A stretch of DNA of 64,000 nt from IMG/VR virus record IMGVR_UViG_3300009187_000024. One strand, 5' to 3'. The position numbers and the translations under genes were made by a program. This DNA is from an uncultured virus (IMG/VR IMGVR_UViG_3300009187_000024) (Duplodnaviria > Heunggongvirae > Uroviricota > Caudoviricetes). The notes below the pieces were generated by a model that did not search any database, had not been told where the DNA came from, and saw nothing but the letters and a program-made list of their open reading frames with translations. Numbering within the stretch: position 1 is the first letter of the stretch; every line of letters starts with the position of its first letter. This document shows positions 43,436 to 44,181 of the stretch, piece by piece.

Positions 43436-43529
43436 TGGTAGTCCCACCCGGAATCGAACCGAGACCGCGCTCCAATCCAGAGCATACCCAGTGTATAAGG
43501 CTGGCGTTCTACCGTTAAACTATGGGACC
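43436..43529 (-). tRNA. tRNA-Ile(UAU) with a long variable arm, CCA encoded
   Basis: Acceptor GGTCCCA/TGGGACT, anticodon arm CCAGC-CT TAT AC-ACTGG, variable stem GCTCT/GGAGC, T arm CTCGG-TTCGATT-CCGGG, ends ACCA. Confidence 0.85.
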
Positions 43530-43543
43530 AAACTAAAAATCAA

Positions 43544-43672
43544 TTGTGGCAGGTGAGGTATCTCCATGCGATCCACAGAACCGATGGTTCCCATTCTCCT
43601 TTTACGGATGATCAGTCCGCTCTACTGTTCTCGAGACTTGCGTAGCCATACAGTAGACTTTACTTACCACAA
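43544..43672 (-). ncRNA. Unidentified structured small RNA between tRNAs
   Basis: Terminal stem TTGTGGTAAGT/ACCTGCCACAA encloses three hairpins; no plausible same-strand ORF. Confidence 0.6.
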
Positions 43673-43677
43673 ACTTT

Positions 43678-43750
43678 TGGACCTGGTAGGACTTGAACCC
43701 ACAACCAAACCGTTATGAGCGGTCCGCTCTAACCATTGAGCTACAGGTCC
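43678..43750 (-). tRNA. tRNA with CAU anticodon, most likely Ile2 (lysidine); CCA not encoded
   Basis: GGACCTG/CAGGTCC acceptor with C4-G69 and C5-G68 (TilS determinants); anticodon arm GACCG-CT CAT AA-CGGTT. Confidence 0.88.
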
Positions 43751-44058
43751 TCAATCGAAAGCGCCTTCCGCAGTTCTTCGTAATAGCTTTTCGTATTTTC
43801 TAAATCTAACGAACTGAAAAAGAACAACACTGCACCTAGGAAAAAGAGACTGAATGACGCAGCTAAGCCAAACACAAAATAACTCGCAGCTGCTACGATC
43901 AATATCGCGTAAATATGCAGTTTCAAATCTCCGATGAAGTTTTCGTAGTCTTCATTTTGCTTAATCGTTACAGCTATAACAGCTGCAGCAAAAGACTTAG
44001 CGAAGAAATACAAAAAAACGTTAACGAAAACAATCAGCAAGACCGAAAGCATTATCAT
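43741..44058 (-). CDS. Hypothetical membrane protein inside the tRNA cluster
   Basis: About three hydrophobic segments; SD GGAG; its stop codon lies within the 5' end of the CAU tRNA. Confidence 0.6.
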   Translation of the reverse strand: MIMLSVLLIVFVNVFLYFFAKSFAAAVIAVTIKQNEDYENFIGDLKLHIYAILIVAAASYFVFGLAASFSLFFLGAVLFFFSSLDLENTKSYYEELRKALSIEDL

Positions 44059-44069
44059 CTCCGAAAAAA

Positions 44070-44145
44070 TGGCGGACCTGGAGGGAATCGAACCCCCATC
44101 GTACAGCTTAGAAGGCTGATGCCTTATCCGTTAGACCACAGATCC
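44070..44145 (-). tRNA. tRNA-Arg(UCU), CCA encoded
   Basis: GGATCTG/CAGGTCC acceptor, anticodon loop CT TCT AA, T loop TTCGATT, ends GCCA. Confidence 0.92.
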
Positions 44146-44152
44146 ATAAGTA

Positions 44153-44181
44153 ATTATACCCTACTTCCGGGTAAAAGTCAA
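44153..44181 (-). promoter_or_regulatory. Sigma70 promoter for the tRNA operon
   Basis: TTGACT-17 bp-TATAAT immediately upstream of tRNA-Arg. Confidence 0.85.

Follow-up and report, generated by a model that had tools for sequence, protein, structure and literature searches.

Which RNAs other than tRNAs do phages encode in their tRNA clusters, and what do these RNAs do? We know of no function assigned to the species 1 and species 2 RNAs of phage T4 since their description, and the same question is raised by IMGVR_UViG_3300009187_000024, a 64,000-nt stretch of DNA from an uncultured lake virus of the Caudoviricetes (hereafter the window, meaning this whole stretch), in which a spacer between two tRNA genes holds an unannotated element on the minus strand. 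An initial annotation, made from the letters alone, had placed here a structured non-tRNA RNA within the tRNA transcription unit, positioned like the T4 species 1 and 2 RNAs, and we find that this proposal holds. Judged by comparison with its relatives, the element is a genuine, strongly conserved small folded RNA, and it belongs to a family that is uncatalogued in Rfam 15 and new within a known kind, the non-tRNA RNAs of phage tRNA islands; genome annotation leaves these stretches blank because the family is missing from Rfam 15. The family is suited to the question of what non-tRNA stable RNAs do in phage tRNA clusters: it is abundant, with two viral-contig scans each returning more than 100 stretches, its members are small (65-150 nt) with a sharply defined core of about 40 nearly invariant positions, and its occurrence in cultured phages makes deletion and end-mapping possible.

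Fold of the element in the window

The element extends from the outer pair of a terminal helix, P1, to its partner, and encloses a purine-rich joining strand that is interrupted by two hairpins (hp1 and hp2), a second helix, P2, and a variable hairpin, P3. Its parts are listed here from the 5' end.

43544..43672, minus strand: whole RNA element, outer P1 pair to partner; a two-hairpin-insertion member of the new family
43666..43672, minus strand: P1 5' strand UUGUGGU, whose inner GGU is (nearly) invariant across the family
43658..43665, minus strand: 5' part of the joining strand, purine-rich, AAGUAAAG for a family consensus AAGGAAAG (from column counts)
43621..43657, minus strand: hp1, an 8-bp hairpin, UCUACUGU (43657-43650) with ACAGUAGA (43628-43621), and the palindrome UCUCGAGA in its loop
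43604..43620, minus strand: hp2, a 5-bp stem with a 7-nt loop, GCGGA-CUGAUCA-UCCGU, a proposed symmetric kissing loop (UGAUCA, 43614-43609)
43601..43603, minus strand: 3' part of the joining strand, corresponding to AAA in the consensus UAAA (A87-A89 in at least 87 of 88)
43591..43600, minus strand: P2 5' strand AGGAGAAUGG, holding one A of an A-A mismatch and a bulged AU of 2 nt (from RNAfold of short members and covariation)
43564..43587, minus strand: P3, a bulged hairpin CCAUCGGUUC..GGAUCGCAUGG, varying in length and sequence across the family
43551..43558, minus strand: P2 3' strand CCUCACCU (from covariation)
43544..43550, minus strand: P1 3' strand GCCACAA, pairing with UUGUGGU 43672-43666 (from covariation)
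43530..43543, minus strand: 14-nt tail or leader UUGAUUUUUAGUUU, separating the element from tRNA-Ile(UAU) (from sequence)

The terminal helix, 8-bp hairpin, 5-bp stem-loop and bulged hairpin of the initial annotation are all present in the minus strand where it had drawn them. Its terminal helix stands over 7 pairs, one of them U-G, and the extension AAGU/ACCU that it had drawn contains an A-C mismatch; what it overlooked are the features by which the family is defined, i.e., helix P2 and the purine strand that hardly varies. P3 is flanked by the conserved loop bases GAA (43590-43588) and AGAUA (43563-43559), and the U of the consensus UAAA serves in the window as the last base of hp2. All of the near-invariant features, i.e., AAGUAAAG..UAAA, the AU bulge, the A/A mismatch and AGAUA, fit the family, and the window departs from the core consensus at one position, a U for G in column 15, as do 5 of 88 sequences.

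Folding of the single sequence gives a minimum free energy of -37.0 kcal/mol compared to -34.6 +/- 3.8 in dinucleotide shuffles (z -0.63), with 57 of 200 shuffles folding as well as or better than the element; we judge the fold to be real because of the comparative evidence from relatives, and not from the folding energy of one sequence. A search of the region with Rfam 15 reports only three tRNAs at gathering scores and nothing within the spacer at E <= 10, so that the element has no match in that database at either threshold. The suggestion that the RNA is a Y-RNA-like scaffold finds no support here, with neither a Y RNA nor a YrlA match in Rfam at E <= 10. Covariance models of the new family match the element over 43540-43676 (minus strand), R1 with 70.8 bits (E 1.5e-14) and R2 with 65.7 bits (E 6e-14, model positions 1-77 of 77), scores that are partly by construction as the window sequence was among those used to build both; the R2 match is the sole one in the window.

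Collection of the family

A blastn search of the spacer against 50,697 phage records returned a single match (E 8e-4), in an unannotated gap of Cobetia phage Carin-5. This match covers GGUAAG...GUAAAAGGAGAAUGGG.ACC[hairpin]GGAGAUACCUCACCUGCC and not the hairpins emphasised in the initial annotation, and the outer helix is altered on both of its strands. Members were then gathered by exact-pattern scans derived from the blocks shared by Carin-5 and the window, by blastn, and with the two covariance models, R1 built from the first 9 sequences and R2 from 91 members. Successive pattern scans of viral contigs returned 14, 15, 33, 101 (80 loci among the matches listed) and at least 115 (80 loci among the matches listed) stretches, while scans of prokaryote species genomes returned 13, 1 and 2, one of the last two being a member. 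We judged all 13 matches of the first prokaryote scan to be chance, since about 8 were expected by chance (an estimate); they show no 3' continuation, and most lie in coding sequence. A second blastn search added Vibrio phage 1.121.O and Ralstonia phage RSP15, both confirmed by R1. The 19 new loci of one scan divided into 6 strong R1 matches, 4 weak ones (E 0.04-0.07, not counted) and 9 without a match, and the 66 distinct stretches examined from another scan comprised 19 with the known core, 22 new members and 25 unrelated sequences, many of them apparently coding.

The resulting 91 distinct members come from uncultured viral contigs, three cultured phages and two contigs of metagenome-assembled genomes, and R1 matches 91 of the 91 supplied with E <= 7e-7. 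Common to every member are P1, the purine-rich strand GGUAAGGAAAG/UAAA, P2 (AGGAGAAUGG with CCUCACCU) and the variable hairpin P3. A single copy is found per genome in each of the five records searched, as in the window. A gp32-like protein is encoded in two complete viral records that carry the element, with 57% and 46% identity to that of the window, whereas Carin-5 has no match to this protein and RSP15 belongs to the Ackermannviridae; the family therefore crosses phage groups. Pfam applied to six open reading frames (ORFs) around the Carin-5 copy finds none above cut-offs, and the virus record nearest to the window, G001, has no match to the region. In a literature search that covered papers without their supplements, the core 18-mers were not found, 12-mers occurred only in unrelated papers, and no description of the motif was met.

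Covariation and the conserved core

The 91-member alignment supports the fold. Paired cells make up 91.4% compared to 74.9% in shuffles, and the covariation score is 0.367 compared to 0.101, with 0 of 500 shuffles reaching 0.367, although the members are mutually related, so that shuffle counts are not probabilities, and the alignment is biased towards the structure of the model, to which it was fitted. As a further control, moving the 3' partners by 1-3 columns yields a covariation of at most 0.075. Both sides change in 11 of 18 pairs overall (6 of 9 in P1, 3 of 7 in P2, and 2 of 2 in the foot of P3), and P1, P2 and P3 thus show in relatives the covariation that the initial annotation had asked to be sought. 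In P1, the G-C pairs at columns 9/233 and 10/232 are retained in 91 of 91. In P2, pair 95/225 is AU in 68, CG in 18, GC in 2 and UG in 1, with 2 unpaired; pair 94/226 is GC in 86 and AU in 5; and pair 90/230 is AU in 89 and CG in 2, the two being the cultured phages RSP15 and 1.121.O. These P2 variants were not forced by the search pattern, as they come from the one scan with P2 free, and every conserved block was left free in at least one scan and is still conserved. Each of the two base pairs at the foot of P3 takes 4-5 pair types, and a P3 hairpin 15-96 nt long is predicted for nearly all of 66 distinct sequences.

RNAfold of the shortest members gives one stacked hairpin, in which P1 is followed by an unopposed purine strand of 12-13 nt, P2, a small internal loop and P3. 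P2 pairs AGG-A-GA-AU-GG with CC-UC-A-CCU around a fixed A-A mismatch and a fixed AU bulge, and the conserved internal loop between P2 and P3 sets G-N-A against N-GAUA. Conservation is concentrated in these irregular parts: about 40 near-invariant bases lie in junctions, bulge and mismatch, with the helices free to vary. The AU bulge, the A opposite A, GGG, GAUA and CCUGCC are retained in 86-88 of 88, and in the 5' joining strand A12 is found in 86 of 88, G14 in 88 of 88 and A16-A18 in at least 86 of 88.

Two ordinary readings of the core were considered and rejected. The AAGGAG stretch looks like a Shine-Dalgarno sequence, and a role in Shine-Dalgarno/anti-Shine-Dalgarno pairing or as a mimic of the 16S 3' end was examined; GGAGA becomes GGAGC, GGAAC, GGAGG or GGAAU, and since these changes are compensated on the opposite strand, we read the resemblance as a by-product of pairing. 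A small ORF opening at AAGGAGAAUG (MGTIGSVDRMEIPHLPQLIFSLVP in the window) meets a stop after 6 codons in Carin-5 and after 4 in L031, and members differ in the frame that runs through the conserved 3' half, all three being used, the AUG opening no conserved frame; because of the early stops and the use of all three frames, we conclude that it is not coding. A blastn search of a short member against E. coli RNAs for complementarity gave no match, an outcome that is uninformative at that database size. As a separate observation, the P3 loops of L028, L108, L117, L130, L134, L150 and L112 have in common the word GAAAC or UGAAAC(G), which may be a subfamily-specific contact.

The two-hairpin insertion and its palindromic loops

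The window is among the 21 of 91 members with an insertion in the purine strand, between AAAG and UAAA; 70 have none, 20 carry both hp1 and hp2, and one (L137) carries a single hairpin. Both stems evolve with compensation. In hp1, four pairs are altered on both sides between the window (UCUACUGU/ACAGUAGA) and L031 (UUCAUCGU/GCGAUGAA), and L040 has UCUUAAG/CUUAAGA; the hp2 stems vary with covariation through GCGGA/UCCGU, CCGAA/UUCGG, UGGAU/AUCCA, UCGG/CCGA and others.

The loops of these hairpins hold palindromes more often than shuffled loops do. A perfect palindrome of at least 6 nt occurs in 17 of the 20 hp1 loops (shuffle mean 6.3, maximum 13), in at least 10 different sequences. The 20 hp2 loops, 8-9 nt long in ten of the members with both hairpins, comprise N-UGAUCA (7), AG-UAAUUA-A (6), AG-UAAUUG-A (3), AG-UCGCGA-C, i.e., AGUCGCGA(C) (1), and CAGAUCA, AUAAUCA and another form (1 each), so that a perfect 6-nt palindrome is present in 14 of 20 in three different sequences, compared to a mean of 2.1 and a maximum of 7 in 2000 loop shuffles. 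P3 serves as an internal control in which palindromes are not in excess (19 of 68 compared to 19.7, and 8 of 21 compared to 6.4).

We read hp2 as a homodimerisation loop because its self-complementarity survives sequence change, without pairing within its own loop. The remark in the initial annotation that UGAUCA might form a kissing loop thus becomes its best-supported part, as the loop switches among UGAUCA, UAAUUA and UCGCGA while the stem covaries; in sequence terms, this palindrome switching supports a kissing-loop homodimer and not an anticodon decoy. The HIV-1 dimerisation initiation site is likewise a hairpin loop with a 6-nt palindrome flanked by purines, a layout like that of the 9-nt hp2 loops AG-UAAUUA-A of 6 members; the likeness extends to one hairpin only, and the site is a retroviral genome-dimerisation signal, not a phage small RNA. 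Kretsch et al. (bioRxiv 10.1101/2024.12.08.627333 / PMC12286853) took the switching of palindromes, GGCC, GAUC and AGCU, as support for intermolecular kissing loops of GOLLD and OLE. hp2 shows the same signature, a likeness in mechanism only.

Genomic context and close relatives

The genes around the element lie on the same strand, as follows.

44153..44181, minus strand: promoter-like sequence of sigma-70 type, TTGACT-17-TATAAT, preceding tRNA-Arg (no more than a match to the consensus, at 11 of 12 positions)
44070-44145, minus strand: tRNA-Arg(UCU)
43741-44058, minus strand: 105-aa hydrophobic ORF
43678..43750, minus strand: tRNA with a CAU anticodon, ending 5 nt before P1
43530-43677, minus strand: 148-nt spacer that holds the element
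43436..43529, minus strand: tRNA-Ile(UAU), 94 nt with a 21-nt extra arm (Rfam tRNA 52.6 bits, insertion in the variable region)

The promoter-like sequence at 44181-44153 is the likely start of a transcript that contains the element. The element had been described as lying between two Ile tRNAs, which is right for tRNA-Ile(UAU); the CAU tRNA is called Met by ARAGORN, and its best full-length E. coli matches are annotated tRNA-Ile, so that by sequence it is probably tRNA-Ile2-like.

Within flanks of up to 300 nt, a same-strand tRNA lies near 67 of the 91 members, upstream in 59, downstream in 52 and on both sides in 44, and an antisense tRNA near none (0 of 91). The upstream tRNA ends at most 3 nt before P1 in 39 of 59, and the next tRNA starts at most 10 nt after the element in 34 of 52. 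The tRNAs beside the element are of diverse species, and the spacing is that of another unit in a tRNA array. Terminator-like hairpins are found 11 nt downstream of the Carin-5 copy and about 30 nt downstream in L080. In one lineage (L213, L229 and L233), the element lies about 15 nt upstream of an ORF that starts MTEFYTNVYTRG, which we take to resemble the N-terminus of the T4-type DNA polymerase gp43; T4 gp43 binds its own mRNA leader.

Eleven related viral loci were fetched via a neighbouring 207-aa protein. The spacer is unchanged in four viral contigs, L001-L004 (147-148 of 148 nt), and three metagenome stretches with the first 21 nt of the spacer share the tRNA layout. L004, in which the protein is 85% identical, keeps the spacer even though its CAU tRNA is cut after 34 nt and followed by a different CAU tRNA and a GIY-YIG endonuclease ORF. 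The more distant L006-L009 have neither the spacer nor tRNA-Ile(UAU). From this pattern of presence and absence among relatives, we conclude that the element is a unit of its own, which lineages can acquire or lose.

A direct repeat, AGTTTG, surrounds the element in the window (43670-43675 and 43530-43535, minus strand), with one copy at the tRNA junction of L005; this fits gain or loss via short-repeat recombination, and the repeat is not seen in other members. A transposon-like insertion was considered, as the inverted ends and the AGTTTG duplication are suggestive, and was rejected, the repeat being confined to the window lineage.

Proposed function and alternative explanations

We propose a composite explanation, to which we give an even chance: an RNA freed from a tRNA precursor by the nucleases that mature tRNAs, with a core that would bind a partner common to many hosts and, in the window subtype, dimerisation via hp2. 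The element would be co-transcribed with its flanking tRNAs from the early-type promoter at 44181-44153, and an RNA of about 130-150 nt would be released by RNase P at the 5' end of tRNA-Ile(UAU) together with 3' trimming of the CAU tRNA, as is assumed for the release of the T4 species 1 and 2 RNAs by tRNA nucleases. The invariant core would form the binding surface for a partner that very different hosts share, be it a protein, an RNA machine or a small molecule. The family is found in T4-like lake phages, an Ackermannviridae phage of Ralstonia, and phages of Cobetia and Enterovibrio, and the retention of the core across such different hosts points to a conserved partner. Symmetric loop-loop kissing of the 6-nt palindrome in hp2 would join two RNA copies, and the apex of hp1 may add a second self-pairing contact, making the optional hairpin pair a compact natural case of RNA self-pairing maintained by palindrome switching.

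Several observations count against this explanation. Of the 24 members that have no tRNA nearby, 21 were inspected, and at least 11 of these lie 6-28 nt before the start of an ORF; these ORF-adjacent copies have no intervening terminator, several directly follow a -10-like box, and they look like a cis-acting element of a 5' untranslated region (5'-UTR) and not like a free RNA. L005, in which the neighbouring protein is 87% identical, has the two tRNAs 5 nt apart and no element, so that this lineage can do without it. The stretch occurs in four lake-water RNA libraries, each from a different study, but solely in the form of assembled contigs, which are uninformative on transcription, ends and strand. 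As to dimerisation, 70 of 91 members are without the module, so that two-copy pairing cannot be the core function; 6 of the 20 hp2 loops are without a perfect 6-nt palindrome (three have UAAUUG, capable of G-U self-pairing only, one has GAUC, and two have none); and small apical hairpins capped by palindromic tetraloops would explain the palindromes of hp1 equally well. Separately, one 155-nt contig of run X4, which matches the spacer almost exactly (43528-43680), was considered as a discrete RNA and set aside; it is of read-length size, stands alone, and is not evidence of such an RNA.

We rank next, as unlikely, a self-cleaving or processing RNA, in which a catalytic fold or nuclease signal would cut at the edge of the element and trim the 3' end of the upstream tRNA or a 5'-UTR, in the manner of the theta ribozymes beside phage tRNAs. 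This would suit the position of P1 within 3 nt of the upstream tRNA in 39 of 59 cases, the near-invariant bases in junctions, bulge and mismatch, and the occurrence of the element at mRNA starts, where self-cleaving ribozymes also occur. Such a position has a precedent in theta ribozymes, which are placed within 5 nt of tRNA 3' ends (PMC10879173). Against cleavage, no self-cleaving family of Rfam 15 matches the window or the Carin-5 region at E <= 10, or six other member loci at E <= 1, the helix order as we read the fold is unlike the HDV-like (hepatitis delta virus-like) nested double pseudoknot, and tRNA-tRNA spacing is equally tight (1-10 nt in L031), so that closeness to a tRNA needs no special explanation. 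A cis-regulatory RNA comes after it and is also improbable in our view. Such an RNA would act on its own transcript, either by sensing a ligand, as an aptamer of riboswitch kind, or by modifying RNA polymerase, as the processive antitermination element put of HK022 does, and would thereby allow expression of the tRNAs or genes downstream. It draws on the tRNA-less copies just described, several of which directly follow a -10-like box (L213, before the gp43-like DNA polymerase start, L182 and L268), on the strict co-orientation with neighbours, and on core conservation at the level of an aptamer. In L217 the P1 3' strand contains the Shine-Dalgarno bases of the ORF that follows, and in Carin-5 the P1 3' strand CUGCCAU could, on our reading of the sequence, alternatively pair with the terminator 5' strand AUGGUAG. 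However, most members (67 of 91) belong to tRNA arrays, and 44 have a tRNA on either side; in these arrays there is no terminator or ribosome-binding site to control; the genes downstream of the 5'-UTR copies are mutually unrelated, no shared expression platform is visible, and a dimerisation module is not expected of such elements.

The initial annotation had itself proposed an anticodon decoy, in which hp2 would mimic the anticodon arm of tRNA-Ile(GAU) and lure a host anticodon nuclease or isoleucyl-tRNA synthetase. The arm in the window does have a 5-bp stem, a 7-nt loop, U33 and GAU at 34-36, both flanking tRNAs read Ile codons, and phage tRNAs are generally known to counter tRNA-targeting defences. 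Yet the arm is missing in 70 of 91 members, its N-UGAUCA loop occurs in only 7 of the 20 with both hairpins while nine have the 9-nt AGUAAUU(A/G)A, half of the loops are too long for an anticodon loop (8-9 nt), and self-complementarity, not the anticodon GAU, is what is retained; position 37 is C, a pyrimidine, where tRNAs carry a purine. The family comparison has largely refuted this idea, and we regard it as very improbable. Least probable of all is the absence of any RNA function, i.e., a spacer or mobile-DNA scar kept by descent in a region churned by homing endonucleases. The unremarkable folding energy of the single sequence, the absence from the close relative L005, the AGTTTG repeats, and the GIY-YIG genes inserted next to the element in L004 and nearby in L005 would all suit it, and it is opposed by compensatory changes in three helices across 91 members with unrelated flanks, by members in three differently classified cultured phages, by an orientation that is strictly that of the neighbours, and by the failure to see the AGTTTG repeat in other members such as L031. 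The remaining probability is assigned to mechanisms not considered. A bolder claim, which we hold tentatively and put well short of an even chance, is that the core of about 40 nt represents a new functional RNA class, which would either cleave or process itself through a new fold or act as an aptamer that recognises a ligand or machine shared by diverse bacteria, and that the two-hairpin subtype forms symmetric RNA-only dimers or chains via its two palindromic loops.

Comparison with known RNAs of phage tRNA islands

The closest parallels in setting are T4 species 1 (rnaC, 139 nt) and species 2 (rnaD, 119 nt), which are likewise non-tRNA, of similar size and on the tRNA strand. In the annotation of NC_000866, rnaD and rnaC follow tRNA-Arg at 1 and 6 nt, a tight spacing like that of the family, and they adjoin the GIY-YIG gene segB, just as seg-like ORFs are found in L004 and L005. 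They differ from the family in that the T4 region gives no match at E <= 10 to R1, or to R2 run without filters. Homology to rnaD was considered on the strength of the shared words GGUAAGU and CGGACUGAU and rejected; these stand in different structural contexts, and MAFFT aligns only scattered identities.

GOLLD and ROOL (bioRxiv 10.1101/2024.12.08.627333 / PMC12286853) are phage or prophage RNAs, often near tRNA islands. Like OLE they are RNA-only homo-oligomers, and GOLLD, ROOL and OLE RNAs are many hundreds of nt long (GOLLD often >800), and GOLLD and ROOL form multimeric cages, whereas our family is 65-150 nt long and most members have no pairing module. Rfam reports no GOLLD, ROOL or OLE match in the window, the Carin-5 region or six other member loci. 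On the bolder claim made above, the two-hairpin subtype would be, in principle, a 130-nt natural relative of GOLLD/ROOL assemblies in the same genomic niche.

Theta ribozymes (PMC10879173), which are HDV-like, resemble the family as small structured RNAs a few nt from phage tRNA 3' ends. They form a nested double pseudoknot, whereas the family is a stacked hairpin with a large one-sided purine strand, a helix order of P1-strand-P2-P3-P2'-P1' without crossing pairs, and no assignable catalytic-C junction. The HDV family of Rfam 15 gives no match at E <= 10 (window, Carin-5) or E <= 1 (six loci), although the Rfam models may miss some theta ribozymes. An HDV-like fold had been suggested by GAAUGGG, which resembles the end of the HDV ribozyme; it was rejected on the unfit helix order and the missing Rfam match.

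Other features of the tRNA region

The extra arm of tRNA-Ile(UAU) is a feature that normally marks Leu, Ser and Tyr tRNAs; here a variable-region hairpin of about 21 nt is joined to a short D arm of class-I type. Similar tRNAs are found in L017 (1407-1524, minus), L019 (1430-1524, minus) and L021 (1501-1595, plus), and the 5' half in 8 viral stretches. The extra arm changes with compensation (GCUCU/GGAGC, GGCAC/GUGC, GUCUC/GAGAG), and its loop resembles (N)AGAUU.

The stop codon of the 105-aa ORF lies within the first 10 nt of the CAU tRNA gene (43741-43750), so that ORF and tRNA overlap. In L004 (2163-2235), L005 (2582-2656) and L007 (2231-2306), only the first 16-34 nt of the window-type CAU tRNA remain, and after them comes a different CAU tRNA, whose T loop is unusual in reading AGCGUAA or AGCAUAA where UUCGAAU would stand; the retained remnant holds the stop codon of the upstream membrane ORF. 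From its sequence, this replacement looks homing-endonuclease-driven. Seg-like GIY-YIG ORFs (MYYTVYKITNKLNGKFYIGKH...) are inserted at different sites of the tRNA region, at about 2303-2917 in L004 and about 1608-2238 in L005, and in L004 a late-promoter-like box, TATAAATA, precedes the ORF, with T4 segB at the equivalent place.

Other non-tRNA spacers of 130-200 nt without an R2 match occur in L019 (1600-1745, minus), L021 (660-775, plus) and L043 (1204-1410, Synechococcus phage S-SRM01). The flanking hairpins of the S-SRM01 spacer (UUAGAAGG...CUUCUAA and CACUGCCCUCUAAUGCAGUG) are common to L029, L035, L036, L083 and L085, with a middle that differs, and L038 and L041 share only the first hairpin. 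These tRNA arrays probably hold more uncatalogued RNAs. Phage tmRNA genes also adjoin tRNA arrays, in L036 (587-780, Rfam cyano_tmRNA, 99.6 bits) and in L011 (975-1340, by ARAGORN).

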